A stretch of DNA of 56,703 nucleotides from a virus (taxonomy: Duplodnaviria; Caudoviricetes), in IMG/VR virus record IMGVR_UViG_3300033141_000963, positions 1 to 56,703 of that record; one strand, 5' to 3'. The translations under genes were made by a program, and so were the position numbers. The notes under the pieces are model-generated. The model saw only the letters and a program-made list of their open reading frames with translations, ran no database searches and was not told the DNA's origin. Below, piece after piece: positions 9,210 to 47,635 of the stretch; within the stretch, counting starts at the first letter, position 1; every line of letters starts with the position of its first letter.

Positions 9210-9398
9210 ATGAATATTTTAAGAAAGATGATGGTGATGGTTTTGGGTATTAGAATGTCTTTAATCGCATGTAGAATAAGACGTAGGGATTTTCGCTCAA
9301 AGAAGTTTCAATTACGCACAGATGTTTTAGTTAGTAGATACTATAGATTAAAAATGGTAAAGAAAGACCTACAGAAGAAATTAAAAAATGATAAATAA
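9210..9398 (+). CDS. Small basic hypothetical protein (62 aa)
   Basis: SD-like GGGGTG; fills the gap and overlaps next start; K/R-rich. Confidence 0.45.
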   Translation: MNILRKMMVMVLGIRMSLIACRIRRRDFRSKKFQLRTDVLVSRYYRLKMVKKDLQKKLKNDK

Positions 9399-21200: not shown

Positions 21201-24200
21201 GCGTTTCTTCTGGAAAATCATTTGAAGAATCGGGTCAGTTGGCTGGTGAAAAATTCACAGATCAAATTCAAGCAAGACTAAATGCTTCTCGAAGCGGTAT
21301 TGATCTAAAGGAGATTGGAATTGATGACCTTGAAGATTTACAAAATAAATTGCAAGAAAATCCTGCACTTTTGACTCAATTATCTGGTGCTCTTGGTGTT
21401 AATTCTCAGGAACTTTCAACACTTATTAATCAAACAGACGGATACATAAGTTCTGTAGAAGAGCAAATTACAGCACAGGTTGCAGCAGAACAAAAACAAA
21501 GGCTAGTAAATGATCTATTGCGTACTCAAGCTCAAGGTCTTGATGCGTTTGCCGCTGCACTAGAAGATTTAGACGCTCGCGTTGGAAATATCGTATCAGA
21601 CTTTACTACTACTGCATCAAATGTTCAGCAAGAAGTTTCAAGAATATTTAGTACTCAGCAAAAAGTAAGTGCTGTAGGAAGAGCTAATGTATTTGAAGGT
21701 GGAGGTAGGGGTCGTTCAAGAGAAGAATTGCAAGCTGGAGTTGACAGGGTTAGAAAATCAATTGCGGGCGATCCTTCTGATTTTGCAGACCTTCCAGATA
21801 CAATCGCTCTTGGAAACAGATTACCACAAGCCTTGAAAGATACAGTAGATCAAATTGATAGAGAGGGAGGCAAATTTACTTTTGAAGAAGTAAAAGATAA
21901 ATTGATTGATAATATCAATGCCGAAGGTGATATATTCTCTGGTCTTTCAGAGCCAGTTAAACAGCAATTGACAGCATCATTAGAAGGTGTATTTGTTGGT
22001 TTAAGACAAGGCGGTGGTGAATTAGGTATTGCTGATATCAAGAATACTTTGCAGGAATTTGGAGGAATCCAAGCTAAATTTACTGAATTAAGTCAGCGAT
22101 CAGCGAGCGTATTGGAAAACGTAACGAATAATTTAAATACATTCAATGCTGCGATACTTGAAAGTGCAAACCTAGTAGTAGAAGCATCAAGACAAAGAGT
22201 AGATGCAGAACTAAGTGTTCTTGAGCGTGGTTCTTCATTCGAGGATCAGTTTGATAGATTTAGAACTGGTAGTAGAGATTCTTTAACTAAAGCAAATTCT
22301 AGATTCGCTGCAAGACAAGCTACTTTACTCAATGCTGGCGGTGCTGGTACTGCAACTGTAGGTGGTGTAAATCTTGGAACAGTTGGTGGTGGCGATTTGC
22401 TTGATAGAAGAACCGGGCTTGAAGACATCAGAAAGGGGCTATTAGACAAGATAGGCGAGCTTACTGGTGTTGACACAACAAATACAAGAGATGTTGTTGC
22501 GGCTGCACAAGGATTTGATGGTGCTGACCAACTTATTACTGAGCTTGGCAATACGACTGCTGCTCTTGAAGGTACAAAACGTGCTATTGAAGAAGCTACA
22601 AGTGAAACCGCTAGGCTTTCTGCAATCGAAGATAGACTTGCTAGTATTAATGAAAGCAGACTAAGTGAAAGACAAAGATTGCAGTCTGGACTTAGCCAAC
22701 TTTCAAATGCAAAAACACCTGAAGAAAGAAATAAAATTCTCAATGAGATTCAAAGACCATTTATTGCTGCAAGCAAACTTGCTGCTGGTCAAGCACTTTC
22801 AGTACAAGAAGGTGCTGCACTTCAAAGTGACTTGCTTTCTGGAAATACTGGTATTGTAGCAAATGCATTTAGGCAACAAAATCCGGGTGCAACAGAAGAA
22901 GAGGTCGCTGACTTTATTGAAAACAGTCTTGCAAACTTCCAAATCGGTGGTCAGAATCTATTCAGAGGTCTTGGTCTTGGTGCAGATGCTACTGCTGCCG
23001 TATTCGGAGCACCAGATGGTCCGGGTGCGACAGCTAAAGGAAAAACAAAAGAAGAACAATCTTTACTTAGTGAAGCAGAGAAAATTCAGCAAGAACAGTT
23101 AAAACTAATTGAGGGTACTGTAAATCAGAATACAGATTTGCTTACTGCACAACAAGATATTTACAAACAAAAAATAATAGAAACAACCGATGCCTTATTC
23201 TCTTCGGCAAATGCGTTTGCAGCACTTAGAGACAAAGAACAAGAGCTTCTTGCACTATCACAGCAAAGACTTGAGCAAACAAAACAGGTTGCTCTTGAAG
23301 AAGCTAAAGTCGAAGAGGAAAAGAAACTTGATGAAGCAGAAAAGAGACTGGGAAAATCAAAAGCAGAAAAACAATCAAGGCTTGATAGCTTTGCTAAAGG
23401 TGAGGAAGCTGTAGGTAAAAATCTTGGAACTAAAGGATTATTAGCGAGTCTAAAGCAGGCTACCGGAAGCAGTGCTGCTGACGCTGCGGCTCAGGCTGAA
23501 AGGTCAATTAAAGGAAATAAGGGTGTCTCAAAAGAAGTAATAAGAGATGATGTCGCTCTACAATTGTCTGGTTTGGTAGAAACATTAGCTTTTGCCGGTC
23601 AGCCGAGAAGTGATGAATCAGAGGCTTTCCAGTTAGGTCTATTTGAAAAACTAGCAGCAGCTACCGCCGGTAAAGATATTGAATCTCCAGAGGTCGCAGC
23701 AGCGTTTAATAAAATTATCTCTGATGCACTTAGTAGTGAAAAGTCTGGTTTTACACAAAGAACAGATAAAATTATTGCTGAAGATGCCGCGATTGTTAAA
23801 AAATCACAAGAAGGTATAGCAGCTAAAAATAAAGAAATTAAAGCATCTCAAGAAGCACAAGCTGAACTCAAGAAGAAAGCACAAGAAGAAGCTGCTAGTA
23901 GAGAGGCAGCAAAGAAAGCAAGAGATGCTGCTAATAAACAAGCTGCTGGTGCTGCTCCGGGAACGCCAACAGTCGGAGATAGGATCAGTAGCAAATTCAC
24001 TGAGGATCAAAAGAAAATTCTTGCCGGAATGGACCCCCCTGCTGCGGATGCACTTGGATCATTAGATCCCGGCGATGGAGTGTCACAATCGGTCAAAGCA
24101 AACGCCCAAGCCAGAGCCAGAGAAGCAAAAGCCGCTGGTATTGATCCGGGAGCAGCAAAAGCCGCTGCTGGAAATCTTAAAGCACCATCTGGCAGATTTG

Positions 24201-25087
24201 CAGGTAGCGGAACAGACTTCGGTACTTTAGAAGAAATAAGAAAAGTAAAATCTTTTAATCAATTTAAAGAAGCTGTTGGTCCTCAAAACGCTCAACTTTT
24301 CCTTGATGAAAAGAAAGATCAAGCCGCAGATAGAGCAAGACAAAAGCAAATAGCAGCAGAAGCATCAGATCCAAGGAAGAGAGCCAGAAGATTGGCGGAT
24401 CTTGAAAAAGAACAAAAAGCACAAGCAAATAGGGAAGCACTTTTGGAAAAGAAAGGTGGTTTTGGGGAAGAAGATGCAGCTAGACTATCAGAACTAAAAC
24501 AAACTGTAGGTCCGCTTAGTGAGGATCAAAGCAGAGAGCTTGCAAGCCTAAAAGCAAGACAAGGACTTTCTACTAGAATTGGTACTGGAGAAAAAAGAAT
24601 ACAAGCACTTAGCCTTGGTGCTGCTACTGGTGCAACCCCTCAAGAGACACAAAATCTTCAACAAGCCGAAGCAGCAAAAGCAGAGCAAACTTCAGTTATC
24701 AATAACGCAAAAGCACAGCAACAAGTACAGCAACAGACAGCACAAGGTGTTCCAACTCAAGCACAAGGAAAAATTCCTAATCCAGCGGGGCAACCAGTAG
24801 ATGCAAAATCAGGAAGTGGTGGAGCACAAGCCGGTGGAGCACAAGCCTTGTCGGATGCAGTAAATACAATAACATCTTCGACGTTCGCGAAAGATTTGCT
24901 CAGTGCTGCTACTAAATTATCAGAACTAGAAACATTAAATATAAATTTTGAAGGATCAATTAAGCCTATCGAGGTTATATTAAATGGGGGAGCTTTATTG
25001 AGAGAAATGAAAGAGGGCATAAAACAGGAACTAATACCTCTTATTAGCGACCAAGTTACCAAAGAATTACAAAACTTGAATCTATAG
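15212..25087 (+). CDS. Tail tape measure protein, TP901-type N-terminal core (3291 aa)
   Basis: Ala/Gly/Lys-rich helical; TP901-like core (FERELAKITQV...TTRESADTIATGLRTIFTRI); GASHAQGGV..ELEGGE and GIGTGTSDSI motifs common in tape measures; canonical position. Confidence 0.9.
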   Translation: MAFNINAAVVLSGPKNIGKVSSSIKKQLSGINVPVNIKLDKNTARGIRSVNTQLQGLNTTLSTLQKNAATTASSFRSLANSTKSIQSGAKAVSSATSNVNKSLGQTAKAANVAGGALQNFGKDAALAARRFAAFSVATGVIFGFTRAVGTATKEAIQFERELAKITQVTGKAGKDLDGLRKTVDSLATGLGLGANELLGVGRTFAQTGQSLNQIEKSLKAVAKASLAPTFGDIQKTTEGAIAALSQFKLEADALEGVLGSLNQVSKRFAVESDDLISVIRRAGGVFAASSQQLGAPEERLRELIGIFTAVRSTTRESADTIATGLRTIFTRIQRPQTIEFLKQFGVQLRATKDDAKALGVAEGDFIGIFEALKRISKASKGLDTLQTARLVEELGGVRQVGKLIPALQNFEKAEKAVQVALKGRGSIAKDVGIATRTLSVQIEQLQQRFGKLIRDIADSSTFQNLARFAIQTANAFITLADALRPILPALTAIAAVKIGAGAIGFGRGFLGGLSKGGGATGVGSGLASVATGGGSAQQTATQKQAASAASKNTTALNSNTSALKTLNTSISNLQRSSQTLNTSAGKLTTQASTLNATLTRLPAQIAASTRGGGAIPIGGGRGRRRAAGGKIPKFKKGGFVEGASHAQGGVVAELEGGELVVPKEQAKRLAVGGLAKAASKRASSGRGLGKTEDLFKPSSAGGLGIELTAGFGKFLGKNLPGTGGKTNRFANLPPAEQKRLATEYRKSKRGQGTSGVAASNAGAKNVRLNLLPNKFAGLFLTGTESRGTGTGAGIAPSAKVQAALVAKAKKSGFPKAERVTLSGPVSQFVSDKNERRSGIDKETAEAAEEAFNSATKKALTSEKLDIGNGTPFKVSDTAIANAVKPLFQKDGLKTNSAQATIQGYLLEGIIGVMGKIQPQSSEANFDFRFDKGKNVSFEGLADFFGQQANLFRPLRAGDAKRQASAKSVTSIFNKSAKLLSSEPIGDSASFVAARNGKMIPGDGMTPVAVSNGEGVIAPNVAKGNLADLEKARKGDAEAISRVANLPISKIKGIGTGTSDSIKGELPANSFVLPARSMKKMREQKLNVGGVVRGVGSAVKKDPTTALFLGLEASLLATSKSSEEFKSNLVNAGLTLAFFGPQLKEFAANIKNASNELSKSAGAQASAPTKKARKVTANLDDIRRGNAIVKAGSVNPRLNAATNTQLSSSSKALANVANDKTAKSNALAAKANKATANAITEVEKTKKLTSQRNASLKKLQGSEKKLSSLKETQARQIKIVQQAEAKVATLEAKKANLIQTQNKIIADQSAKTARLNQIVGDKDPRALQNQKDLKFAKEQLKEAQGVNARGGTKGGQKFAQGQIKTLQANVTNLERQGAAIQKSLANEANVLARQTGGGAQKGLANIGSKISSLDKDIKGLNAGARALKGSVLDLDTQIAKQGKIVADNTKAAKTSQAALKRQTQVAQKAVANQRTARTAATAARGVAQAARGRLADFNTLAKAEQGRRALSSGTRAARIAGKDGLSRAARFERARSIREARFARVNPGAKNPFAKGRFGFKGFQLGNFGIAGRAGGTGLAGLGAKAGTVAKAGLGGPGGIAALLASLFGDAVVNTGTEAIVGKQKTVAGAKGFSQEQGGRRTAQITGGLKGGISGAALGASIGLSTGPLAPILAPVFAAVGALVGTVDGVLSGLKGQLEFETLEKAENAGLKLGTALDTLSEKGFKNVEALDAVTDASNGLVSQVVATSSRLNALTFSGRQEGLAVAGGTNIAGGAVQAFANFSDNLSVGFNLLGKVISQETGTGIEGFSNSIGGLIDQALLADQTLSESSNGLVSFFGSIRKGTAELLGFDVEGRANAARQKVVGAGQLINAENFQRSLIAIPQEALEKASITFQGLGPAIANSISIDDVAEIAGQGSGSFDDLLESLKAAGDGSEEFKAQLAALKGLAGVEALKQAKDLSGVFSEIAAAGKDSGREGLLKTLFAIGENSAQAFAQGVSSGKSFEESGQLAGEKFTDQIQARLNASRSGIDLKEIGIDDLEDLQNKLQENPALLTQLSGALGVNSQELSTLINQTDGYISSVEEQITAQVAAEQKQRLVNDLLRTQAQGLDAFAAALEDLDARVGNIVSDFTTTASNVQQEVSRIFSTQQKVSAVGRANVFEGGGRGRSREELQAGVDRVRKSIAGDPSDFADLPDTIALGNRLPQALKDTVDQIDREGGKFTFEEVKDKLIDNINAEGDIFSGLSEPVKQQLTASLEGVFVGLRQGGGELGIADIKNTLQEFGGIQAKFTELSQRSASVLENVTNNLNTFNAAILESANLVVEASRQRVDAELSVLERGSSFEDQFDRFRTGSRDSLTKANSRFAARQATLLNAGGAGTATVGGVNLGTVGGGDLLDRRTGLEDIRKGLLDKIGELTGVDTTNTRDVVAAAQGFDGADQLITELGNTTAALEGTKRAIEEATSETARLSAIEDRLASINESRLSERQRLQSGLSQLSNAKTPEERNKILNEIQRPFIAASKLAAGQALSVQEGAALQSDLLSGNTGIVANAFRQQNPGATEEEVADFIENSLANFQIGGQNLFRGLGLGADATAAVFGAPDGPGATAKGKTKEEQSLLSEAEKIQQEQLKLIEGTVNQNTDLLTAQQDIYKQKIIETTDALFSSANAFAALRDKEQELLALSQQRLEQTKQVALEEAKVEEEKKLDEAEKRLGKSKAEKQSRLDSFAKGEEAVGKNLGTKGLLASLKQATGSSAADAAAQAERSIKGNKGVSKEVIRDDVALQLSGLVETLAFAGQPRSDESEAFQLGLFEKLAAATAGKDIESPEVAAAFNKIISDALSSEKSGFTQRTDKIIAEDAAIVKKSQEGIAAKNKEIKASQEAQAELKKKAQEEAASREAAKKARDAANKQAAGAAPGTPTVGDRISSKFTEDQKKILAGMDPPAADALGSLDPGDGVSQSVKANAQARAREAKAAGIDPGAAKAAAGNLKAPSGRFAGSGTDFGTLEEIRKVKSFNQFKEAVGPQNAQLFLDEKKDQAADRARQKQIAAEASDPRKRARRLADLEKEQKAQANREALLEKKGGFGEEDAARLSELKQTVGPLSEDQSRELASLKARQGLSTRIGTGEKRIQALSLGAATGATPQETQNLQQAEAAKAEQTSVINNAKAQQQVQQQTAQGVPTQAQGKIPNPAGQPVDAKSGSGGAQAGGAQALSDAVNTITSSTFAKDLLSAATKLSELETLNINFEGSIKPIEVILNGGALLREMKEGIKQELIPLISDQVTKELQNLNL

Positions 25088-25099: not shown

Positions 25100-26794
25100 A
25101 TGTCAGCACATACATGCACAACTTTTACATACGGTGAATATGAGTTAAAACCAGCACCGCTATTCAACGCTTCAACTACCTTATTAAAAACACCTGATGG
25201 TAGTGGGTATGGTGTTATCTATAATATTGATTTCAATGGGACTATTCTATTAACCGGAGTAGAGGAAAGAGAATCAGGTATTAAGGGCGTATTCACAGAA
25301 ATAGAGGCTTTCCAAAAGGCTTTCAATAGAGAAGGCAGGCTACTACTAGTTCGTCACTCTGGGGCTGGCGATACCGACTATACTGCTATTTTCAGTGGCT
25401 ATCCTAGAATTGACAGTTATAGTATTAATCAAAGAGGTGGTGATAATTTTGTTTTTGCTGCTGATTACGATTTTTCTCTTAACTTAACTACTTGGCGAGG
25501 TGGGTTTGGGGACGATTATGTTGACCCCTTTAATAATAACACAGGTACGGAACGAGAATTTCCGCAATACCCTCCATATATCGAGTCTATGAATGAGTCA
25601 TGGGATATCGAAATGGATCAAGATAGAGTTCCAAGTGTATGGAGACATGTTGATGAGTTTGGCAATGAAAGCGGTGCTGAAGTTCAGCCATTTTATGCAA
25701 CTGTAAATCACACAGTTGACGTTCAAGCAAGGCTAATATTTACTGGATGGGACTCAAGCAACGACGAAACAGTTCATACAGATCCGTGGGATGATGCAAA
25801 ATCTTGGGTTAGTGGATATCTATATTCAAACGATGGTCTAGCTACTAGAGCTTACGATCAGAAAAAATATGGTTTTGTTACGGGTTTATTGCAGCTAAAC
25901 AAGGTGTATAACCTAAGTGGTCAAGGTTATAAAAACATGATTAGAAACCACTACAGAAGTGTATCATCAAATATAACAGAAGGTACAATTCAGGTTAAAG
26001 AAACATATTTAATAGCACCCCAGCCATCTTCAGGCGATCTACAAAGTAATGACGCAAGAGAAGATTGGACTGCTACAATGAACTTTTCAAATGGACTTTA
26101 TACTTTTAATGTTAATGGTGAGATAAAAGGTCTTGAGACAAATAATTATGCAAATCTTGAAAAACCGGGATTTCAATGGTCAATTGCCGATTCACGTTTT
26201 GCAAGGGCAGAAGAGTATTGGAATCTAGTAGAACCAAGACTAAGAACTAGGGCGATGGTTGCAAGGGAGAAGATAAATAGCGGTGAAGGTGCTTGTGCTT
26301 TTAATGTTCCTAAAATTCCATCGACCCCAACGCAACAAACTGTTGGATTTAATCCAGCAGCGGGTACTATATCATACGACTATTCATATGAACTTTTCCC
26401 AAAAACCTTAGATTGCGGTGACGATTTTTGTATATTATCACAACAGATAAGGGTTGATGATACAAATGCCAACGATGTTTTTGCTTCTCATGTTATACTT
26501 GGAAGGAGACAAGGGCCAATATTACAAGATCTTGGAACAGTAACAGCAAAACAGAGGTCAGTTAGTGTAGAAATACGTGTACCGCCACCAACTTCGATTG
26601 CTACTACTGGATATATGTATCAAACTTTTCCCACTGGTTGTGTAAACGATCTTGTTGCACAACTAACAGGAAATCTTTCCCCAGCACCAGACCAAGTATT
26701 TGTTACACAAAACACTGAGTCATTAGGAATTACAGATGGAACTTACACGAAACAGGTTGCGGTCATATATACACAGTGTGCTCCACCAGCATAG
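25100..26794 (+). CDS. Putative distal tail/baseplate protein (564 aa)
   Basis: Beta-rich, immediately downstream of tape measure; repeated GTI.Y.Y-type strands. Confidence 0.5.
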   Translation: MSAHTCTTFTYGEYELKPAPLFNASTTLLKTPDGSGYGVIYNIDFNGTILLTGVEERESGIKGVFTEIEAFQKAFNREGRLLLVRHSGAGDTDYTAIFSGYPRIDSYSINQRGGDNFVFAADYDFSLNLTTWRGGFGDDYVDPFNNNTGTEREFPQYPPYIESMNESWDIEMDQDRVPSVWRHVDEFGNESGAEVQPFYATVNHTVDVQARLIFTGWDSSNDETVHTDPWDDAKSWVSGYLYSNDGLATRAYDQKKYGFVTGLLQLNKVYNLSGQGYKNMIRNHYRSVSSNITEGTIQVKETYLIAPQPSSGDLQSNDAREDWTATMNFSNGLYTFNVNGEIKGLETNNYANLEKPGFQWSIADSRFARAEEYWNLVEPRLRTRAMVAREKINSGEGACAFNVPKIPSTPTQQTVGFNPAAGTISYDYSYELFPKTLDCGDDFCILSQQIRVDDTNANDVFASHVILGRRQGPILQDLGTVTAKQRSVSVEIRVPPPTSIATTGYMYQTFPTGCVNDLVAQLTGNLSPAPDQVFVTQNTESLGITDGTYTKQVAVIYTQCAPPA

Positions 26795-26824: not shown

Positions 26825-29800
26825 ATGGCAATTAATAATTGTACTCCTCCGAGAATATTTGGACCACCTGCACAAACATTATTTTTAGGTGCAAGCGTAA
26901 AAGATTTTACTCTAACTGCTGGGTGGAACGAGCAGGCTTCAAATCTTACAGTAACTCTTGTTGAAGATACTAGATGTGCAGGAAATAAAGTTTACTGGGA
27001 TGAGAATCTAAATAGACAGTCTGGGGTTATGGTAGATCCGGGTTTTGTTGAACCAGAACCGGGAAGTGCAGTTTATTTCAGAATGGAAGAAGATCCAAGA
27101 GCGGAAGATGCTTCTGATAGGAAAGGTATAGAATATGCTGGTCTTGTTCAAAGTTGGACTAAGGCATATAATAATCAAGGAAATCCAGTATATACTGTCC
27201 AAATTACAGACCCTAGAATCGTATTACAAAATACTCAGGTCGTTGTAAATAATTATGCTGGTGCTACTGCTGGAGTGCCAAACTTATTAAATGCATATGC
27301 TTTCACAGAAGGACAAGTACGAGGTTCAGATATATGTGGTTCTAGTCCAGTTGGAAGGTTTGGTGGTGTTACATTTGATGGTACTCCGGGTTTTCCTGCA
27401 AATGCTAGAGGTATGGCTTGGAATGATATCAAATGTGCCATTCATACACTTACATCATGTCCAAATGCAGCTATAGCTCAGGGGTTTTACGGAAGTTATC
27501 TAAATGGCTCAAGGATAAGGTATATTGAAGGTGCTGATCTTAGTTACGGTACTATTCGTACTAATGATGGATACATGGTTGACTTATCAGATGTGCCATT
27601 TGCACCAACAGACTATAGAATATCCGGCCCCACATTATCTGTTATGGAGCTTGTCACTCAGGTATGTCAAGATGCAGGTTGTGATTTTTATGTAGAATAT
27701 CAGCCAACCAAAAATGGCTCTACTATCTATAATATTATTAAAATTCGCACAGCACAGCGTCAAAACCAACCAGCTATGGGTGCATTGCAAACCTTTATAG
27801 ATCAACAAAGCGGTCTTGCTGAAGAAGCCCAAGGTGGCATTATATCTTGGACTGAGGGTGAAGAAGTAAGAAATGAAGATACTTCTATTTATTTAATTGG
27901 TGGAGAACAAAGATTTGATCTAGAGATCACTAATTTGGGTATGCTCCCATATTGGGGTCTTGACAATGACGGAGCACTAATACAAGCACAGGTTGCCGCT
28001 GGTGAGTATCAAGTAAGGCTAGATGTAAGGAGACTTAACGGATCTCTATACACCTCGTTTGCTACTTCATTTATTTGGGTGTCTGAATCGGAATTGCGTG
28101 CTGCTTTAGGAGATTTTGACGCTTGGAAACACGTAACTCTGGCTAAAGGTCTTGGCGTTGCAACTCATTTTGCAAGTATAAAACAGCAAAAGTTTTTAAG
28201 TGCTGAGAAGATACAGCAGGCAGCAGATGGTGAAATACCTGCTCATGGTTTGGTTATTCCATCAATTGATGCTACATCTAATGATAATGATCCTAACAAT
28301 TCTTCTGCTAAAGATGTAACAAAAATATATGATTTTATTAAGTCGTTTGCTGATGAATTTTATGGAAAACAATTTATAGCTGCTACGGATTTTATATGCT
28401 ACGTTCCAGATACCGATGCGAACAAATTCAAGTATTCTCATGAGCCATCTACAGAAGGCTGCTGGATTGATGGCGGTACAGTAATTGGTCTTGATGTAAC
28501 AAGCTCTGCCGCTGACTTTTTTACCAGTAATGATGGAAGATTCCAACCAATAATTAGATATCCATACTCTGCTGGCTTTACATATGCTGGTGCAGGAGGT
28601 AGTCTTGTTGCCGACCCATCTAATCTTGGTGATAATAATTATATTACTAATGGTACTTACATTTGGCAAAAGGCCGATATTGACACAAGAATAATTTTTG
28701 GAAACCCTCAAGCTCCCGGAAATGGTGTTCCCGGAATGTTGTTAAAGGTCGGTGCTCCTGTTTACAATACAACAAGTAGAGATACTGGCGGAACAGACGG
28801 TGTGGATCAAAACCAAGCCGGTGCTGACTTCCTAGCAGAAGAGACTGGTGGTGCTGGATTAACTGTTCCTAGTTGGAGAGATAGATCCGCATTTTCTCTT
28901 TCAATGGTTGGCAATGCAATATCTCCTGATGCAGCTATGGTTCCTATTTGGAGTCATGTAGATGTATATGGTCCTTGGGGTGTTGCTGGACCACCGGGAC
29001 AAACTAGGGTTGTAAATGACGACAGCTTTGTTCCTTGGGAATTTGGTAGTGCATCATTGATGGCTGCTGCTGCTATAGATAAAGTTAGTAATGCAACGAC
29101 TAGTATGTTAAAGGGTGAGCGTGGAACAGTTCAAATCGCTGGGTTCTTAGGTAGACCTCTTGGTTCTGAGCTTTTAGCTGCTCCGGGAAATAATGATTAT
29201 ATTGAAAGTAGAACGCCATCCTTCACTCAATGTGCTGATGCTGTAGCTTACACATACCTATCAAAACCGGGATGGCAGGGGTCAAATGGACCAAACATAA
29301 CAAATATTAATGTCGGTGTTGGTGCTAACGGTTTTACAACAGAATATCAATTCAGTACATATACTCCAAGATTCGGAAGATTTGATAAAGATAATGCTGA
29401 CAGACTAAAGCAAATAGGTCAACAAAGATTAGCTCAGGCAAGAAACGCTAGAGCGAAACAAGCACTAGCACAACAAATTACTGCCGCTGTTTCAAACATA
29501 AGACAAAGAATCAATGACCAATTAGGTAAAAGTGCAAGAGCACCAAAATCTGCAAGTCATATGTTTATCGGTGGATTTGCTGGGGAAAGAAATGAATCAT
29601 TTACTTTGAACGCAAAAGAGGCTTCACTTACTTTCCCAAATGATGCTAAGTATGCCGAATCCGCCATGATGAGTATAGACGGTTTGATTCGTCCTGTATC
29701 AAAGGCTGGTGATGGATCTTTACCTCGTTTTATTAATTATACTGAATCTACATGCTCTGGTAATGTAAATCAATCAATTGCTCCAGACGGTCCAAAATAT

Positions 29801-32800
29801 ACATACTCTGGAATAAAAGTAAGTCAAGACTTCTTAGACCCACTTTCTAATCCCGGAGAGGGAGTTTCAGTAAGAGATACCGCTGCGTCTGGACATGACA
29901 TTGAAATTCTAGGCAGGAATACATCAGCACCTCCTTCTGGATGGGCAATCGCTGAAGGTGAAGAAGAGGGTTCAACTGGATATGCAGATGATTATAGATT
30001 CTTTGCAATGAGAGGTCCGCTTGTACTCCAAGGTTGGGGTTATGATACAGCAGGAAAACCAGTTCCAAATGCTTCTGATAGTGATGCAAATGCTGAAGCT
30101 GGTACATTTACAACTTCAAGTCTACAAGATGAATTTCTAGCTGGCTTTTTAAAGAAACCAAAAACTTGGCCTGTAGCACCAGTTGATTTGCGTCTTGATA
30201 GAAAACGTGGTGTATGGACTGTTCCACCTCCTCCAAGAAACCTCCATGTCAATGCAACAGGTAGTTGCTTGTCTGAAGATACTATCGCTTCTGTAACCAA
30301 TGCTCAGACTACATATGACGATACTGGCGGCACTGTAGACAATGATATTAAGATAACAGCAAGTCCTTGGGATGTTGAGCTACCAAAAGCAGTTGGTAAA
30401 ATTCCAGTTTATTATGATACAAGTGATTGTAAATACTATCCTTTTCCAGTTAATAGACTAGATATAACTTCTAGTGGCGTAGGTGGCACAGGAACCGCTG
30501 GATACTTTGATAGATTTTCAGATGTTAAGCATATTGTTTTTGCCAGCGGCTTCTCAGGTATTAGCCTGACTAGCGGTTGTGATAATACTGTATATATTCA
30601 TGCGATACAGCAAACTGGGGATACCGTAGAGAATCTTGCTCAATACAAGCAAAACACTAGTCCTTTCTGGCCCGATTCTATAAGTTCCTCCTGTTCAGGT
30701 AACTTGCCAACTACAGTAGACAGTTGTAGTGGTACTGATTGTCTTACAATTGGCAAAGGGCTAACATTATCTGTTGATGGAACCGGTCTTTTACTTGACT
30801 CTTGGCAGTTTATCGAGGATATAGGTTATACATGTAGTGCCGGATCATTTACATCTGGTTCGTTAGGATGTAATCCTTATAATTCATTACAAATTGGGTC
30901 TGGCTTGGTAGTATCAGAAGAGACTGCCGATTCCGTATATACCATTAATAGCCTGATAGACGTTTATGGTCGCACCGTCACAACTTGCGTTAATCCTACT
31001 GGTCCAACTGCCAGAGTTGCAAATGCAGCAGAACACGGGTTAGATTTTGTTGGCTGGTTATCTACTTCAGTTGATTCCTCCACCTGTAGAGTTCGAGTAA
31101 GTGGTGTTGAGCCTACGATACGTGTCTTAAATACACCTACTTGTCCTGCCTCCGAATCGCCAACCGATCTTGGACTAGCAAATTCAATAGTCTTTACAAC
31201 CGGACTGAAAGCCACGATTGATGGTTGTCGTGCAACAGTAACATCTACATTTGGTGTTGAAGGTTTTGATAATAATTGCGACCAAAATGTAAGTACATAC
31301 ACACCGATAACAGGCATCAGTTTTAGCACTGGTTTGAATGTTTGGGACGATGGTTGCGGTAGGGTTAAAGTTGCCTCAACATTGTTTATCTCTGGAAAGC
31401 CAGTATGCAATGAGCTTAGTCCGGGCGTAGGTAGAAATCCATATTATTATAGTAATACTCCTACTGGTCTTGTATTTGGCAAGGGTATAAAAATTGTTGA
31501 AGCTGACTCACCAGTATTCTGTCAGCCGAATATATCTGTTAGTTTACACGTTAGCGGTACTAACTCATATACAAATTTAAAAGAAAAAATAAGCGATTGG
31601 GATGCTCTTATTTTTACAGGTAATTTAAGTGTTGACTCAACTGATGCTTGTACTGTAACAATTAGTGGCGATAATCGGATATCATTCTCTGGTGAAGAAA
31701 ACTGTGGTCAAAGCAAAGTGGCTGATTTTCTCCAAAGAAGATTAATTGCTAGTACAGGCTTGATGATAGAACAACAGGCCGAAGGTGCTGTTATTAGCTC
31801 TAATTTTATCGCCAATGGTTATTCTGACGCATGTATCCAAACTCCATCTGAGGAAATCACAGATGTGCGAATAAGAGAGCTTAGTTTTGGAACTGGTCTT
31901 ATATTCACAACCGGATTATGTAGTGCAACAATTGATTCTCCTTACTTTATCAAAACTACTGGCGATTGTCGGGGAACAAGCTATGAAAGAACCACAACAG
32001 GACTTCGCATCGGTGCAGGTCTAAGGGTAGATGGTATTGGTTGTAATCCTTTGATATCAGCAAATCTGTTTGCTAGTGGTGCGGCTGGTGCGGGTGGTGC
32101 TATACAGAAGATACAGGGGTGGAATAATATCCAAGTCACTGGTGATATTTATGTAGAACAAATAGATGATTGCACTATCCAAATAAGTGGTGCTGCTGGT
32201 GGTGGTGAAGTTGCTGTGACTGGAAGCACTAATGCATGTGTTTGGAGTGCAGATACAACAAATAATTCTATAGAAGGCATTATATTCGGAACCGGACTGT
32301 CAACTACAGTCAGTGGTAATAGTATTCACGTTAATTCACGATTCGGAGTTACTGGAACTCCAGATGGTTGCAGAGGAGAATACTATTCCGACAGAAATAT
32401 AACAGGAATTGAAGTAGGTAGGGGTCTTGCATTATCATCTAACGCCTCATGTAGACCAATATTGAGATCAAATATCTATGCCAGTGGTGCTTCTTCGGCT
32501 GGCGGAGCCGTTGATGTTAAAACAGCAGCATGGGACGCTATTCAGTTTACTGGAAATTTAACAACAACATATAGTGCAAGCGATTGTAAGATAGTTGTAA
32601 GCGGCGTTAATACTTCTAGCATTGCTGTAACCGGCAGCGACGATCCATGCACTGTAAACCAAAATACAAAAAACAATGATATAGCTGGTTTCTTATTCGG
32701 AACTGGCCTTAAAGTCACCGATGATGGTGGTTTGATTAATGTTAATTCTCGATTCTTGGTAGGCGGTGTTAAAGATGGATGTAGAGGAACTGAGGTCAAC

Positions 32801-35800
32801 GCTGCAAATGCTACTGGAATTAATGTTGGTAAAGGTCTTTTATTAACTAATAGTGCTGGTTGTAGTTCACTTATTTCAACTAATCTTGCTATAAGTGGTG
32901 CTTCAACACTTGGTGGTGCAGTCAATAAATACACTGGATGGGATGCTATTCAGGTAACTGGCAGTTTAGTTGTAGAACAAGTTGATTCCTGTACTGTTAG
33001 AATTAGCGGTGTTGATAACTCCTTTCCTATCACGGTAACAGGAAGCACAAACCCATGCACCCTTGGTGCTGACACGGTAGTGCAAGAGACTGCTGGAATT
33101 GTGTTCTCGACAGGACTAAAAACTATAACGTCTGCGGATGGCGTTTCTGTTTCCGCACCATTTTCCGTTTCCGGTGATGGTAGTGCTTGCCGTGGAGAAT
33201 ATTTCGCTCAATCAACTACAACTGGTATAGTAGTTGGTAAAGGCTTGAAGGCAAGTGCAGATGCCTCATGTGCTACTTTAATTGATTTTAATGTAGCTGC
33301 TAGTGGTGGTCCCGGAGATACAAAATTACAAGGCTGGGACGGTATTCAATTTACAGGCAATCTTACTGTTTCATCTATTGACGGTTGTACCATTCGTGTT
33401 AGCGGATCTCAAAGCCCAATTGCTATAACCGGAAGTACGAATCCTTGCACACCAGCAAACGATACTGTTGTCAATTCTGCTGATGGAATAATATTTGGAA
33501 CTGGCCTAAAAACAACACAAGATGCTGATGGCGGTGTCCATGTTAATTCAAAGTTCTACGTTTCGGGCGATGGTGGAGTGTGTGGAGGAACATACGCTGC
33601 TGGGGCACATACGACAGGAATTGTTGTTGGTGCTGGACTAAAGGCAACAAACTCTAGCTGTAGCTCAAATATTGAATTGAATTTCTTGGCATCTCAAGGT
33701 GCTGCTTGTGGTGCTGGGGCTGGTTCTGAATCTGCTATCAGTAAAATGGTTTATGGAACTGGTTTAACATTCACCGCAAATGGATGTACTGGTACACTCC
33801 TATCAAATATTACTGCCAATGGATCTACATATGCTAATCCATGTGATGTTGCAAGCAGATCAGACACTTTTGCTAATAAGCGTTTCCAAAATATTGAGTT
33901 CGCTGGCTACCTCAACTCTGCAATAGACGGTTGTGACGTTGTTGTTAGTGGTGGAAAGTCGCCTATCAATATGGGTCCAGATGGCTCATTATTTGAAGCT
34001 GTTGGATTAGTTGCTGGCAAAAGAATAGATATCACTTCTAGCGGAACATGTACTGGGGTTATTAGTGCAACCTCAATATCTATTACTGGTAGTTCTGATG
34101 AATGTACTGACGCAAGAGATGTAACTGCTAGTGATATTGATGGAATCATATTTGGAACTGGCTTACGAGCAACATCTACTGATGGTGGATTAATTATAGA
34201 CAGTCCATTTGAAGTAGAAGGATTAGGTGTGTGTAGCTCTGCTGCCTATGCCGCATCTCAATCTTCTAAGTTACAATTCGGAAAAGGACTTCTTGTTACC
34301 GAAAATACTGCATGTGAGCAATTAGTACAGTCAAATATTAAAGTATTGGCGACTGGAACTTCTGGCACTTTTGATAATATTGAATTTGTTGGAAATCTAT
34401 CGACAACTTGGGATGGGTGTGGAGTAACAGTAAGCGGTACATCATCTGCATTGATATCAGTTAGCGGTGATAATTCATGTGGCAAAAGTTACTATAATAA
34501 TGGAAGTGTTACTGGATTGATGTTCAGTACTGGTCTTGCTGTTTCAGAAGATGGTGCTGGCAATGCTGTTATTTCAAGCACGATCAGGGCACAGGGTGGT
34601 GCTATTACTGATGAGTGTGCAGTTCCGCCAACCAGAGATGCTGCATTTGATAGCTTATTCACTAACCTTATCTTTACTGGATATTTAAGTTCATCAACTG
34701 ATGGATGTGATGTAACAATCGAAGGTAAGAGAAGTCCTATAACTATCTCAAAGAGTGGAACATTCTGTGGTACGGAAGTAAGCGAGAGCGGAAATATCAC
34801 TAATCTTAGTATTGGTAGTGGTCTAGCCTTAACAGGTGTTGCAGGTTGCTCCGCTACTTTATTAACAGATATGAAGATTAGTCAGGCCGAAACTTGTAAT
34901 AGAAGTGCTGTACCAGAAGCCTTGTTCACAAACCTAGAGTTTAAAACTGGTCTTGCAATTACCCAAAAGGCTGGTTCATCGTGTACTTGGGAAATCAGTA
35001 ATGTATTTAATGTTGAGGGTAATAATGACTGCGGCTATGGAGGTGGAACAACTTCTGTAAATGGTGTTGAGAAAATAGTATTCTCATCAGGCTTGGCAAT
35101 TCAGGATGATGGAAATTGTCAAGTAACTGTTACTTCTAAAAAGCTAGTCGGTGGAGGCGGAAGCAATGGATGTTTAGGCGGAACCGCTTCTCCTGTTCCG
35201 TTTGACACACTATTATTCTCTGGACTTAGTGTTTCAACAGACGGATGTACCACAACAATTGGTGGTCCAACACTAACTGTTGCACACAATGGTTCTTGTA
35301 ACTCAAGCACACTGGCTACATCTTGCTTTAATAATCTTATATTCTCTACGGGTATTAAGATTGAAGGAAGCAACGGAACCTACGAAGTTGCAGGTGGAAT
35401 CGAATTCCTTAAAACAGGGTGTGGTGCTCCTTCAAATATCAATAATTATAGCAACTTTGCAAATGTGATAGTCGGAGAAGGTCTTAATGCACGAGATGTT
35501 GGCTTATGTACTGTAAAAATTGATGCCGGTCTATCTGGTATTAGAAGTGGTAGTCAAATTCGCGGCCAGCAAGTCAACTGTGGAACACCAAGTGCGGTTC
35601 CTCCGGGGACTTGTAGTACTGATTGCTTGGCTGCTGGGTATGAAGGTCCATTTGACGATAGAAGCATACCTTTGGCTGTTAATGGTCTTTATTCTGGTCC
35701 GGGTATTGGATTTGCTTCATGTGAAGGCGATTGTGATCTTATTATATTCCAAAATAGTGCTGTATCTGGACTTAACAATACCTGTGGTGGCGAGCTTGGT

Positions 35801-36130
35801 CTTCAGGTTTACTCAACATACTTCTCAAATGCATTTACAATCAACGGAAATAAAGGTGTTGACCTAACAACCAATACCCCTGTTGATGGTGCAACATTCA
35901 GTCATGGTGTTAATGTATTCATGAATGAGGGCGGTGGAGCTTGGAATTGCAGTCTTGTTACTGGAGTTGAGTTTGAACAAACCAAAGTCGATGGATATGT
36001 GACAAATGTAACTGTAACACCATTATTCGGAGTCCTTGGTGGTTCAAGCACATGTGATCCGGGTGATGCGACATCTAAAGATCTGCCGGGAGAGTCCAAA
36101 AAATTCTGGGTAACAACTATTCCATGCTAA
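26825..36130 (+). CDS. Giant tail-tip protein: hub-like N-terminal ~1130 aa plus Cys-rich repeat fibre (3101 aa)
   Basis: SD AAGGA; hub-like N-terminus (ITDPR, ELVTQVCQDAGCDFYV); after WPVAPVDLR..RGVW (30167) come ~40-45-aa repeats with [IL]xF[GS]xGL and Cys. Confidence 0.7.
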   Translation: MAINNCTPPRIFGPPAQTLFLGASVKDFTLTAGWNEQASNLTVTLVEDTRCAGNKVYWDENLNRQSGVMVDPGFVEPEPGSAVYFRMEEDPRAEDASDRKGIEYAGLVQSWTKAYNNQGNPVYTVQITDPRIVLQNTQVVVNNYAGATAGVPNLLNAYAFTEGQVRGSDICGSSPVGRFGGVTFDGTPGFPANARGMAWNDIKCAIHTLTSCPNAAIAQGFYGSYLNGSRIRYIEGADLSYGTIRTNDGYMVDLSDVPFAPTDYRISGPTLSVMELVTQVCQDAGCDFYVEYQPTKNGSTIYNIIKIRTAQRQNQPAMGALQTFIDQQSGLAEEAQGGIISWTEGEEVRNEDTSIYLIGGEQRFDLEITNLGMLPYWGLDNDGALIQAQVAAGEYQVRLDVRRLNGSLYTSFATSFIWVSESELRAALGDFDAWKHVTLAKGLGVATHFASIKQQKFLSAEKIQQAADGEIPAHGLVIPSIDATSNDNDPNNSSAKDVTKIYDFIKSFADEFYGKQFIAATDFICYVPDTDANKFKYSHEPSTEGCWIDGGTVIGLDVTSSAADFFTSNDGRFQPIIRYPYSAGFTYAGAGGSLVADPSNLGDNNYITNGTYIWQKADIDTRIIFGNPQAPGNGVPGMLLKVGAPVYNTTSRDTGGTDGVDQNQAGADFLAEETGGAGLTVPSWRDRSAFSLSMVGNAISPDAAMVPIWSHVDVYGPWGVAGPPGQTRVVNDDSFVPWEFGSASLMAAAAIDKVSNATTSMLKGERGTVQIAGFLGRPLGSELLAAPGNNDYIESRTPSFTQCADAVAYTYLSKPGWQGSNGPNITNINVGVGANGFTTEYQFSTYTPRFGRFDKDNADRLKQIGQQRLAQARNARAKQALAQQITAAVSNIRQRINDQLGKSARAPKSASHMFIGGFAGERNESFTLNAKEASLTFPNDAKYAESAMMSIDGLIRPVSKAGDGSLPRFINYTESTCSGNVNQSIAPDGPKYTYSGIKVSQDFLDPLSNPGEGVSVRDTAASGHDIEILGRNTSAPPSGWAIAEGEEEGSTGYADDYRFFAMRGPLVLQGWGYDTAGKPVPNASDSDANAEAGTFTTSSLQDEFLAGFLKKPKTWPVAPVDLRLDRKRGVWTVPPPPRNLHVNATGSCLSEDTIASVTNAQTTYDDTGGTVDNDIKITASPWDVELPKAVGKIPVYYDTSDCKYYPFPVNRLDITSSGVGGTGTAGYFDRFSDVKHIVFASGFSGISLTSGCDNTVYIHAIQQTGDTVENLAQYKQNTSPFWPDSISSSCSGNLPTTVDSCSGTDCLTIGKGLTLSVDGTGLLLDSWQFIEDIGYTCSAGSFTSGSLGCNPYNSLQIGSGLVVSEETADSVYTINSLIDVYGRTVTTCVNPTGPTARVANAAEHGLDFVGWLSTSVDSSTCRVRVSGVEPTIRVLNTPTCPASESPTDLGLANSIVFTTGLKATIDGCRATVTSTFGVEGFDNNCDQNVSTYTPITGISFSTGLNVWDDGCGRVKVASTLFISGKPVCNELSPGVGRNPYYYSNTPTGLVFGKGIKIVEADSPVFCQPNISVSLHVSGTNSYTNLKEKISDWDALIFTGNLSVDSTDACTVTISGDNRISFSGEENCGQSKVADFLQRRLIASTGLMIEQQAEGAVISSNFIANGYSDACIQTPSEEITDVRIRELSFGTGLIFTTGLCSATIDSPYFIKTTGDCRGTSYERTTTGLRIGAGLRVDGIGCNPLISANLFASGAAGAGGAIQKIQGWNNIQVTGDIYVEQIDDCTIQISGAAGGGEVAVTGSTNACVWSADTTNNSIEGIIFGTGLSTTVSGNSIHVNSRFGVTGTPDGCRGEYYSDRNITGIEVGRGLALSSNASCRPILRSNIYASGASSAGGAVDVKTAAWDAIQFTGNLTTTYSASDCKIVVSGVNTSSIAVTGSDDPCTVNQNTKNNDIAGFLFGTGLKVTDDGGLINVNSRFLVGGVKDGCRGTEVNAANATGINVGKGLLLTNSAGCSSLISTNLAISGASTLGGAVNKYTGWDAIQVTGSLVVEQVDSCTVRISGVDNSFPITVTGSTNPCTLGADTVVQETAGIVFSTGLKTITSADGVSVSAPFSVSGDGSACRGEYFAQSTTTGIVVGKGLKASADASCATLIDFNVAASGGPGDTKLQGWDGIQFTGNLTVSSIDGCTIRVSGSQSPIAITGSTNPCTPANDTVVNSADGIIFGTGLKTTQDADGGVHVNSKFYVSGDGGVCGGTYAAGAHTTGIVVGAGLKATNSSCSSNIELNFLASQGAACGAGAGSESAISKMVYGTGLTFTANGCTGTLLSNITANGSTYANPCDVASRSDTFANKRFQNIEFAGYLNSAIDGCDVVVSGGKSPINMGPDGSLFEAVGLVAGKRIDITSSGTCTGVISATSISITGSSDECTDARDVTASDIDGIIFGTGLRATSTDGGLIIDSPFEVEGLGVCSSAAYAASQSSKLQFGKGLLVTENTACEQLVQSNIKVLATGTSGTFDNIEFVGNLSTTWDGCGVTVSGTSSALISVSGDNSCGKSYYNNGSVTGLMFSTGLAVSEDGAGNAVISSTIRAQGGAITDECAVPPTRDAAFDSLFTNLIFTGYLSSSTDGCDVTIEGKRSPITISKSGTFCGTEVSESGNITNLSIGSGLALTGVAGCSATLLTDMKISQAETCNRSAVPEALFTNLEFKTGLAITQKAGSSCTWEISNVFNVEGNNDCGYGGGTTSVNGVEKIVFSSGLAIQDDGNCQVTVTSKKLVGGGGSNGCLGGTASPVPFDTLLFSGLSVSTDGCTTTIGGPTLTVAHNGSCNSSTLATSCFNNLIFSTGIKIEGSNGTYEVAGGIEFLKTGCGAPSNINNYSNFANVIVGEGLNARDVGLCTVKIDAGLSGIRSGSQIRGQQVNCGTPSAVPPGTCSTDCLAAGYEGPFDDRSIPLAVNGLYSGPGIGFASCEGDCDLIIFQNSAVSGLNNTCGGELGLQVYSTYFSNAFTINGNKGVDLTTNTPVDGATFSHGVNVFMNEGGGAWNCSLVTGVEFEQTKVDGYVTNVTVTPLFGVLGGSSTCDPGDATSKDLPGESKKFWVTTIPC
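30700..35530 (+). repeat. Degenerate coding repeats of ~40-45 aa with a ~130-137-aa three-unit super-repeat in the centre
   Basis: [VI]TGS[TDS]xxC units start at 32216, 32627, 33035, 33425 (spacings 411, 408, 390 nt) and 34082; WDAIQFTG-type unit recurs five times. Outer boundaries approximate. Confidence 0.8.
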
Positions 36131-36945: not shown

Positions 36946-37655
36946 TATTTAGCTCCGAATGTTTCTTCCCAATTATCATTATAACCAGATAGGTCATCTG
37001 GAGTACCTTCACGTTGATACCCAGACAGTTTATTAATCATCAACCGTCCCTCTAGGTTCTTGATATCCCGAATTGATTTAGGATCGTCACTATTAGCTTT
37101 AACGAAACTAACCAAATCTACATTATTCCTTTTGCACAAAGTCTTGATTGCTACGATTTGCTGATCGTTAATAGGTTCGTCGGTGTTGAACTCTTCATCA
37201 GACTCAGATGAGATTTCTTCAGCAGTTTGAACCCTGATCTTCAATGCACGCCTCAAAGCCTTTCCTTCAGCCTTAGTACATGCAGTAGCAACAAGATGTT
37301 TATTAAATGGTGCAGGAATCGTATCACCAAGAACATCAACGCAAGCACTGACAACAATTTCTGTGCCATTAAACTTACGAATAACAAGAGTATGTTTTGC
37401 AGTAACTTTACCGATATACTTTTGCTTTGGAATTTCTAAGATGTCTGTATCCGATCTAACAATCTCACCATATAGTTTTTCTGTAACTCTTCTAAGTCCA
37501 TCAGTTGTTGGATTGCCATCTAGTAGCTCATGATCTGAAAGTTCATCTAAGATATAATCAACCCACTTAGGATCAGTAGGATTAACCTTAAAGTCATTAA
37601 TCTCAAGAGCACCATCCTCAACAACTTCTTCCACAATGTCCTGAATCTTTGTCAT
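36945..37655 (-). CDS. Rad52/Sak-like single-strand annealing protein (236 aa)
   Basis: DGLRR...beta strands...ATACTKAEGKALRRAL helix resembles the Rad52-fold; C-terminal INDQQI..I..L helical domain as in annealases. Confidence 0.55.
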   Translation of the reverse strand: MTKIQDIVEEVVEDGALEINDFKVNPTDPKWVDYILDELSDHELLDGNPTTDGLRRVTEKLYGEIVRSDTDILEIPKQKYIGKVTAKHTLVIRKFNGTEIVVSACVDVLGDTIPAPFNKHLVATACTKAEGKALRRALKIRVQTAEEISSESDEEFNTDEPINDQQIVAIKTLCKRNNVDLVSFVKANSDDPKSIRDIKNLEGRLMINKLSGYQREGTPDDLSGYNDNWEETFGAK

Positions 37656-38446
37656 ATTTCAAAATACCTTTCATTCTTCTTAGGAAAATTATCTCTTACT
37701 TTTTCTAATATGTTTAAAACAGAGGAAGCTACATTCCTGAACTGCCTTTGAGAATCTCTTTTAACCAATTTTACTCTGATAAGTACCATATCGGCAGATA
37801 AAATTAATCCATTTTTCTGTGTATCAGCAGCCATTCTTTTTTGTAACTTTTCTTCACCACGTATAGGCTCGAAGTGCATAGGTCCATCAATCTCAATAGC
37901 TGTCCTGCAATCCCTAACATAAAGGTCAATATGGAACTTCTCATTCTGTAACAAGTGTTCCTTATGCTTATCCACTTTATAACCTTCTTCAATCAAGAAA
38001 TCGAACAGGTATTTCTCCATTTTAGACCCGTTTCTAGATGCCTCCTGCATTGCCTCTGACGATCTTTTAAAAAAGTGCGTCTTCTCATGCTCTGTTTTTT
38101 TATTCCAAGATTCTGTGCCTATTTGTGACCTATATTCTCTCTCTTCGTCAGTCATAGAATCCCAGACTTTCCCCTGACTCTCACTGATTTTCATCTTAGT
38201 TTCCGCTGATTGTTTTTTACCAGCAGTAGGATGCTCAACCTTTCCTTCCGAGAGAGCTATTTTCTGTGCATCTGATTTACTTCTGGATTCAATTCCAAGT
38301 TTCTTGGCATCTCTACGAACTCTATTTGGGTATGTACCCAGCATATCTGCTATTTCTTTCCAGCTTTTATTTCCATTGGAATAATACTTCGTATAATATG
38401 CCAGCCTTATAGAATCTAAATCAGTAAAAAATGTTTCTTTAGCCAT
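37652..38446 (-). CDS. Free-standing homing-type endonuclease: HTH + NUMOD3-like repeats + Vsr/DUF559-like nuclease
   Basis: HTH (SWKEIADMLG), GKKQSAETKMKISES, catalytic HIDLY...AIEIDG..H; start 38446 (TAATG overlap, SD AAAGGTGA). Confidence 0.7.
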   Translation of the reverse strand: MAKETFFTDLDSIRLAYYTKYYSNGNKSWKEIADMLGTYPNRVRRDAKKLGIESRSKSDAQKIALSEGKVEHPTAGKKQSAETKMKISESQGKVWDSMTDEEREYRSQIGTESWNKKTEHEKTHFFKRSSEAMQEASRNGSKMEKYLFDFLIEEGYKVDKHKEHLLQNEKFHIDLYVRDCRTAIEIDGPMHFEPIRGEEKLQKRMAADTQKNGLILSADMVLIRVKLVKRDSQRQFRNVASSVLNILEKVRDNFPKKNERYFEI

Positions 38447-47625: not shown

Positions 47626-47635
47626 TGCATCTCCA

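Follow-up and report, generated by a model that had tools for sequence, protein, structure and literature searches.

Covarying cysteines in the repeat array of a predicted hub-fused tail fibre from an uncultured phage

Organization of the Hub-Fibre Protein

The DNA stretch analysed here (the window; 56,703 nucleotides) covers positions 1 to 56,703 of the IMG/VR virus record IMGVR_UViG_3300033141_000963 (Duplodnaviria; Caudoviricetes), a phage fragment whose completeness is estimated at 36%. Positions 26825..36130 of its + strand form a single open reading frame (ORF), stop codon included, for a protein of 3101 residues that we term the hub-fibre protein (P0001). An earlier note, made from the sequence alone, had singled out positions 30260-36130, i.e., the last 1956 codons and the stop codon of this ORF, as encoding a giant trimeric fibre fused to the tail hub and stapled through its cysteines, either by disulfides or by metal ions.

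The protein holds 82 Cys, 11 of them in residues 1-1145 and 71 in residues 1146-3101. In this second portion, which we call the repeat part, Cys accounts for 3.63% of the residues (71/1956), as compared to 0.48% (41/8583) in the other 16 ORFs of the + strand and 1.05% (157/14993) in all 39 other ORFs of the window; measured against the latter rate, the enrichment has a binomial P of ~1e-18. No CxxC occurs anywhere in the 3101 residues. The tally given by the earlier note (some 71 isolated Cys, without CxxC, in about 1960 residues) was thus accurate, as was its remark that the protein ends in Cys: the last residues are ...TTIPC, followed by the stop codon.

Between the conserved WPVAPVDLRLDRKRGVWT end of the N-terminal module and the first repeat unit lies a linker, or neck (residues 1146-1289; 30260..30691, + strand), with three Cys at positions 1148, 1202 and 1252, the last two of which are invariant in nine proteins of the family. 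Next come about 36 units in tandem, each about 44 residues long (residues 1290-2901; 30692..35527, + strand), an array recognized through a unit hidden Markov model (HMM) that gave 32 matches in the window and through four further anchors added by hand. The units range in length from 36 to 51 residues (mostly 43-46), share the core L/I-x-F-G-[ST]-G-L, and carry at most two Cys, at fixed places: Cys-a, 19-20 residues before the L of the G-x-G-L core, and Cys-b, 7-9 residues after that L. This agrees with the previous description of Cys at two recurring positions of a ~43-residue repeat. The chain closes with a non-repetitive tip of 200 residues (2902-3101; 35528..36127, + strand) that contains nine Cys, the terminal one included. 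The tip has no Pfam match and gave only weak, sub-threshold beta-helix-like leads in the ESM Atlas (0.89-0.90); from its position, it is presumed to be the receptor-binding or assembly end.

If X denotes a unit with both Cys, a or b a unit with only the respective one, and o a unit with neither, arrays can be read as blocks of the form a X^n b, and the 36 units of the window spell aaXXXbb aXXb aXb aXb aXb aXXXb aXb aXXXXX aX. The most regular part, delimited by super-repeat alignment, comprises three aXb super-repeats (residues 1798-2206; 32216..33442, + strand). A three-unit super-repeat, as proposed in the earlier note, is indeed real (about 136 residues, with a Cys spacing of 43/27/44/22), but it is confined to four aXb blocks (residues 1805-2188 and 2427-2532) and is not general, the other blocks holding four, five or more units. 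The super-repeats are 33-57% identical as protein and leave no trace in a search for tandem repeats at the DNA level, which returned only a 24-nt trinucleotide-like run, while the autocorrelation at lag 273 was 0.115 versus a maximum of 0.105 in 200 shuffles. Judging from these sequences, the super-repeats appear to be old.

Conservation and Distribution of the Repeat

A HMMER scan of 1.84 billion representative proteins with residues 1600-2500 returned 10 proteins at E <= 0.001. With phmmer, relatives of the repeat came out only when the default bias filter was switched off. Two full-length homologues were retrieved by a word-indexed search, P0002 (54% identical) and P0003 (42% identical). 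All of these proteins combine a Cys-rich repeat part with a Cys-poor hub. No residue of the repeat part is better conserved than Cys, which is kept at 71 of 71 positions in P0002 and at 60 of 71 in P0003. Gly comes second (76% and 64%, respectively), and Ala, Val and Ser are kept at 41-54%. Conservation of the cysteines, on which the reading in the earlier note hinged, is thus evident. The terminal Cys occupies the identical position in P0002, whereas P0003 ends in PCV, and a Cys is found among the last five residues in 14 of 20 complete, non-redundant family members.

Iterating the unit HMM four times over the fetched ORFs yielded 695 aligned units from 51 proteins (658 units at a domain E <= 0.01). 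Throughout this alignment, Cys is present at column 7 (position a) in 72% of the units and at column 34 (position b) in 86%, and at every other column in no more than 2%.

The whole 3101-residue protein matched no Pfam family (at E <= 1) and no PHROG family, and searches of the PDB with the sequence or profile of the repeat part gave nothing usable. Likewise, tblastn with each half of the protein against 50,697 phage records found no match, i.e., no cultured relative, and a literature search, within the terms used, found no description of this repeat or of the phage group. By sequence comparison, then, the 44-residue repeat, which lacks a Pfam, PHROG or PDB match, would represent a family with no described relative. 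The Cys-rich fibre repeat does exist, is under strong selection and occurs widely in an uncultured clade.

Covariation of the Cysteines

The presence of Cys-a in a unit (i) is strongly associated with that of Cys-b in the following unit (i+1). Over 326 junctions from 34 non-redundant proteins, the contingency table was [[264,13],[10,39]], corresponding to phi = 0.73 and to a Fisher P of 7e-30, a value that overstates independence because the units share ancestry, both inside one protein and from one protein to another. A partial answer to this kinship was provided by shuffling the order of units within runs: 22 discordant junctions were observed, whereas 2000 shuffles gave 78.5 on average and never fewer than 62. 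For the five other pairings considered, namely a(i)-b(i), b(i)-a(i+1), a-a, b-b and a(i)-b(i+2), phi ranged from -0.13 to 0.11. The covariation of Cys that the earlier note had proposed to look for is therefore there, in the form of an a(i)-b(i+1) rule.

Applied to the window, this rule assigns partners to 52 of the 61 Cys of residues 1290-2930, with separations of 62-84 residues (mostly 70-72), and leaves nine unassigned, all of them at one end of the array or the other. Among the blocks, n takes the values 0, 1, 2, 3 and more, and the pair is missing altogether from a few units (o) and relatives. The way in which blocks open with a b-less unit and close with an a-less one would be explained by just one kind of bond, a(i)-b(i+1). 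Overall, the co-occurrence of Cys-a and Cys-b fits pairwise bonds between residues about 71 positions apart, some 26 per chain, and the dependence favours such bonds being disulfides.

Other pairing schemes were considered and rejected. Pairing of neighbours at the same position (a-a or b-b) shows no correlation, and its parity is broken by blocks with n = 0 or 2. Neither the within-unit a-b pairing nor the b(i)-a(i+1) pairing correlates. A nested arrangement, in which the first a of a block is bonded to the last b, formally fits the block grammar, but appears implausible for long blocks in a rod.

Predicted Structure of the Fibre

When three copies of residues 1798-2069 (the first 272 residues of the most regular part) were modelled with ESMFold2, the interaction prediction score from aligned errors (ipSAE) was 0.70, versus 0.00 for the best of three controls. 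Of 30 proteins solved as same-chain pairs, 20 reach the score mark in question, as does 1 out of 23 whose structures are single chains, a calibration that holds only roughly here, given the custom alignment and the use of three copies rather than two. The trimer runs agreed in at least 93% of the contacts, with a partner predicted local distance difference test (pLDDT) of at least 72. An alignment of segments alone covered the query better than a mixture of whole homologues and segments. The model is unlikely to have been memorized, since the repeat has no sequence relative in the PDB.

In the predicted trimer the chains are heavily wound into one another; of the roughly 1070 inter-chain contacts, those with the lowest error are parallel inter-chain strand pairs, at offsets of 17-20 and 36-37 residues. 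Both the b-Cys and the a-Cys of B-type units appear in the interface lists. The trimeric nature of the fibre, as claimed in the earlier note, is thus backed at the level of a model that passed its controls.

The N-Terminal Module

Residues 1-1145 (26825..30259, + strand) constitute a conserved module with 11 Cys. An AlphaFold2 model of this module, based on a 50-row alignment, reached a pLDDT of 78.1. Foldseek against the PDB gave five matches at E <= 0.001, all of them VgrG or contractile-injection-system spikes; the best was VgrG1 (7q5p_A, E 1.5e-5; also 4uhv_B). The next matches were the tail-associated lysin of phage NF5, Mu gp44, and the tail tips of lactococcal p2, 80alpha and Bxb1. The matches extended over ~350 aligned columns, with template modelling (TM) scores of 0.12 (query) and 0.21 (target), values that are low because the query is 1145 residues long.

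As modelled, residues 1-1145 therefore contain a hub fold of the gp27/VgrG type, and this supports a fusion to the tail hub. The position of the gene, which follows that of the tape measure, concurs with the fold match in sustaining the earlier claim of a hub-fused fibre. Hubs of the gp27 type are trimers located on the tail axis. At the sequence level, the module matches no curated hub family (no Pfam or PHROG family and no hit in a PDB sequence search). We also note that the hub profile against the PDB gave just a weak match to ryanodine-receptor (RyR) repeat domains (6uhi_A, E 3.4e-4), at residues 585-669 (approximately 28577-28831).

Searching with an alignment as the query, we found the hub module to be common to 79 metagenome loci (80 of 205 candidate stretches were confirmed) and to 37 loci on viral contigs (37 of 61 confirmed), while a previous search of viral contigs with a single C-terminal query had confirmed none of seven stretches. 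Eight loci from a genome collection that match the module (L118-L125) lie in metagenome bins that bear the labels of eight unrelated lineages, both archaeal and bacterial. These labels most likely reflect phage contigs mis-binned into genomes, and given such a variety of lineages we assigned no host. Nor was any tRNA, which might have served as a host clue, found in the window.

In related phages, the hub may be followed by very Cys-rich ORFs as separate genes, for example in L101 (45 Cys in 653 residues) and L037 (48 Cys in 863 residues). Non-repetitive ORFs of this kind lie at L058:7672-17103, L052:6489-14507, L037:13971-16559, L101:13575-15533, L079:15502-17463 and L045:5775-7811. They carry CC and CxC clusters, one example having 134 Cys in >3144 residues, and they are not recognized by the 44-residue unit HMM. 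A Cys content of 5-7% in non-repeat tail-tip proteins of related phages is the pattern of extracellular disulfide-rich proteins. The tape measures encoded upstream in the related loci (2200-2800+ residues) almost all have 0 Cys.

Genomic Context

The + strand of the window carries structural genes and the - strand replication genes. The former include a virion structural protein (4874-6508, +), a Gp77-like fibre-tail adaptor (8076-8381, +) and the tape measure protein (15212..25087, +; 3291 residues, 0 Cys), identified through PHROG tape-measure families (best E 4.2e-26). According to the rule of ~0.15 nm per residue, a tape measure of this length implies a tail of nearly 0.5 micrometres. Between the tape measure and the hub-fibre gene sits an ORF of 564 residues (25100..26794, +) without PHROG or Pfam match, which is a candidate distal tail protein by virtue of its position. 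The structural module also contains an ORF of 173 residues (9388-9909, +) with seven Cys (4.0%) and no family match.

On the - strand are genes for a split DnaE-type polymerase, DnaB, a primase, a PD-(D/E)XK nuclease, a deoxynucleoside monophosphate kinase, a sigma factor and glycosyltransferases. The DNA polymerase III alpha subunit is divided over two ORFs within 45991-50410 (-), one with the PHP and NTPase domains (48521-50410, -) and the other with the finger, HhH and OB domains (45991-47625, -), and between them lies an exonuclease-like ORF of 229 residues (47636-48325, -). The best phage matches of the polymerase are ~32% identical. Further features are two HNH/homing-endonuclease-like ORFs (37652-38479 and 56075-56482, both -), a sigma-70 region-2 ORF (45535-45978) and a cluster of glycosyltransferase and nucleoside triphosphate (NTP)-transferase genes (39662-45545).

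Comparison with Known Systems

The hub-fibre protein resembles the tail-tip hub/central-fibre proteins (Tal) of siphophages, such as lambda gpJ, T5 pb3/pb4 and SPP1 gp21, and more generally the VgrG and gp27 hubs, in gene order (tape measure, one ORF, hub), in its predicted N-terminal fold and in having a long C-terminal extension on the tail axis. It differs from Tal and gp27 hubs in lacking a sequence-level family match and in its Cys-rich extension of ~1950 residues, made of a repeat of no known family.

A trimeric shaft of short repeats also recalls the adenovirus fibre shaft (a triple beta-spiral, PF00608), whose repeat has a G-x-G-L-like turn motif. The unit here is of 44 residues rather than 15, and the adenovirus shaft is not known to have a Cys ladder. 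The PF00608 shaft profile gave no match in the Pfam scan of the whole protein mentioned above, and in the ESM Atlas there was one such feature match, at 0.80 (rank 16), below the level for a lead.

The premise of the earlier note that phage fibres are generally Cys-poor has to be qualified, since exceptions for tail parts have been published (PMC10811340, PMC13576161). The tail of the Agrobacterium phage Milano is reported to be disulfide-crosslinked throughout and to need dithiothreitol (DTT) for contraction (PMC10811340). As in our case, conserved Cys occur in a tail part of the virion, and the Milano crosslinks confer a chemical resistance that is relieved only by a reductant; those bonds, however, join different subunits of sheath, tube and baseplate, with few per subunit, as opposed to the ladder of ~26 pairs proposed here within one repeat protein (PMC10811340). 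No sequence relation exists between the Milano tail proteins and the hub-fibre protein.

The gp39 protein of the siphovirus tail tube has stabilizing inter-ring disulfides in one branch of its family, according to PMC13576161, where crosslinking of the Q-beta capsid in oxidizing surroundings is cited as well. In gp39 the Cys pair is an optional addition to a tail scaffold and raises thermal stability, and here too there are a few units and relatives without the pair; but gp39 forms a tube, each monomer has two Cys, and the bonds link the rings of a helical polymer, not the units of a fibre repeat (PMC13576161). The P22 tailspike, as summarized in PMC3357383, uses reactive C-terminal Cys transiently in trimer assembly, while the native protein has no disulfides. 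That trimeric adhesin thus offers a parallel in that Cys near its C-terminal triple beta-helix are tied to trimer assembly, but it has only a handful of them (PMC3357383), whereas those of the hub-fibre protein recur along the whole fibre. None of these three cases is a periodic ladder inside a fibre repeat.

Interpretation as a Proposed Cysteine Ladder

The explanation towards which we find the evidence to tip, if only slightly, is that of a trimeric, hub-fused central fibre stapled unit to unit by a(i)-b(i+1) disulfides formed after release. The protein would be the tail-tip hub (Tal/gpJ-like) of an uncultured, very long-tailed siphovirus, and this hub would run on as a homotrimeric central fibre, consisting of a stack of ~36 beta-rich units of 44 residues. 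Cys-a of each unit would be bonded to Cys-b of the next, each disulfide spanning ~71 residues, for a total of ~26 staples per chain and ~78 per fibre; the stapled runs (the blocks a X^n b, often of three units) would be parted by junctions without a staple. The staples would most likely arise by spontaneous oxidation once the virion is outside the reducing cytoplasm, i.e., after lysis, and by hardening a thin and long fibre they would protect it from unfolding, shear and proteases while it remains in water for long periods. That the Cys pairs are disulfides, when these form and what purpose they serve is what we infer from the data above. As a whole, the earlier interpretation comes out partly supported.

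Several observations weigh against this explanation. Besides the kinship of the units, which inflates the statistics, the a(i)-b(i+1) rule is broken at 22-23 of the 326 junctions, mostly in two loci (L081 and L063). The AlphaFold2 monomer model of the three super-repeats (residues 1798-2206) was poor, with a pLDDT of 50.6. In the trimer model, no Cys-Cys pair is found among the 25 inter-chain contacts of lowest error, and none of the three interface lists contains segment residues 8 and 145, which are a-Cys of A-type units, while their proposed partners (79 and 216) are listed. Furthermore, if the parallel strand pairs offset by 17-20 residues mean a plain triple beta-helix with one unit per turn, a(i) would be expected to come nearest to b(i), not to b(i+1). 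Finally, fibres assemble in a reducing cytoplasm, and profiles for Erv/ALR, DsbA and glutaredoxin each found nothing in the four records searched (the window and three related partial genomes, all partial, with an estimated completeness of 36-81%).

The earlier note had suggested that Erv- or thioredoxin-like genes be sought in the genome: in addition to the absence of Erv/ALR from those four partial records, there is no thioredoxin in the window, and one was found in just one of the three relatives. The latter, at L117:1354-1845 (record G001, whose hub-fibre gene is 51% identical), is a thioredoxin-fold protein of 163 residues with a lipobox-like, hydrophobic N-terminal anchor and the motif WCGPC. 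It is apparently exported and is therefore not an obvious fibre oxidase. Its neighbours, in a stretch that may be of phage or of host origin, are small, Cys-rich ORFs with signal-peptide-like starts, a lipid desaturase and a DUF1501 fragment.

A more far-reaching version, which we regard as doubtful, has the ladder running between chains, with Cys-a(i) bonded to Cys-b(i+1) of the neighbouring chain. In oxic water, the three chains would then become one covalently interlocked rod with regular unstapled joints, representing a new fibre fold and a redox lock characteristic of a clade of uncultured, long-tailed aquatic siphoviruses whose tail tips are like extracellular disulfide-rich proteins.

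Disulfides formed unit to unit after release must be weighed against four other accounts of the same cysteines. The first involves no covalent chemistry: the Cys would be small, buried free thiols packed in the fibre core and conserved for steric reasons only. Buried Cys stacks do occur in beta-helical proteins, and such packing would be in keeping with assembly in the cytoplasm and with the lack of an oxidase gene in the four partial records; in addition, the native P22 tailspike has conserved C-terminal Cys without disulfides (PMC3357383). Nevertheless, retention of 71 out of 71 Cys at 54% identity is far stricter than usual for packing residues, the joint presence or absence of positions ~71 residues apart suggests a bonded pair, and the 5-7% Cys of the non-repeat tail-tip proteins in related phages is also at odds with a purely steric role. 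We deem this account unlikely.

Metal-thiolate stapling, whereby Cys-a and Cys-b of the three chains (up to six thiolates per level) would coordinate a metal ion, or a small cluster, at or close to the axis of the fibre, strikes us as decidedly unlikely. In its favour, metal sites form in a reducing cytoplasm, which would remove the problem of oxidation; they would resemble the His-Fe sites (gp37 type) at the tip of the T4 long fibre. The strict conservation of Cys at fixed positions would suit a metal site, as would the finding that b-Cys and B-type a-Cys belong to the predicted interface between chains, and the co-occurrence of a(i) and b(i+1) would also be expected if both positions fed a single one. 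A simple Cys3 site built from the same position of each chain, which was the alternative put forward in the earlier note, is nonetheless disfavoured, because it predicts no dependence between a and b, whereas Cys-a(i) and Cys-b(i+1) appear and disappear together rather than as independent triads. The repeat part has only nine His in 1956 residues and no periodic H-x-H or other metal-ligand motif, leaving Cys as the sole candidate ligands, with no conserved His, Asp or CxxC context around them. Also, the modelled interface does not include the a-Cys of A-type units, and all-thiolate six-coordinate sites are unusual.

It is very unlikely, in our opinion, that each chain forms instead its own beta-solenoid, with one 44-residue coil per rung, no intertwined trimer, and a(i)-b(i+1) disulfides linking each rung to the next through the core. 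For a partner exactly one unit away, a bond from one coil to the adjoining one would be the simplest geometry, and it would be compatible with a-Cys of A-type units lying off the modelled inter-chain interface. Yet the monomer model was poor, the trimer model is confident and intertwined (a comparison that is indirect, as the two models come from different programs), and the hub belongs to a trimeric family.

The least probable account is that the Cys form transient disulfides, or act as reactive thiols, as registration aids in trimer folding and are reduced in the mature fibre, as proposed for the C-terminal "cysteine annulus" of the P22 tailspike. Folding does pose the problem of aligning three 1950-residue chains whose repeats are nearly identical, transient disulfides are reported in P22 tailspike assembly (PMC3357383), and 14 of 20 relatives have Cys in their last five residues. 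Yet ~26 pairs per chain along the whole array far exceed what would be required for registration at one end, and the a(i)-b(i+1) rule resembles a repeated structural element.

The explanation that we prefer, i.e., disulfides joining successive units of a trimeric central fibre, entails a specific bond map, with pairs such as C1805-C1876, C1849-C1921, C1942-C2013 and C1986-C2056, which mass spectrometry could test. The 44-residue unit could also be of interest as a modular, staple-able block for protein nanofibres. If the ladder does exist, it raises the question of where and when a virion assembled in the cytoplasm becomes oxidized; if, moreover, it runs between chains, infection might be triggered in part by its being reduced, or pulled open mechanically, at the host surface.

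Which host is recognized depends on central fibres and tail tips, and very little is known of how they are built in uncultured aquatic siphoviruses. Should the a(i)-b(i+1) bonds prove true, they would constitute the first periodic disulfide ladder in a phage fibre and would extend the occurrence of disulfide-locked tails, as known for Milano and gp39, from tubes and sheaths to the receptor-binding apparatus.

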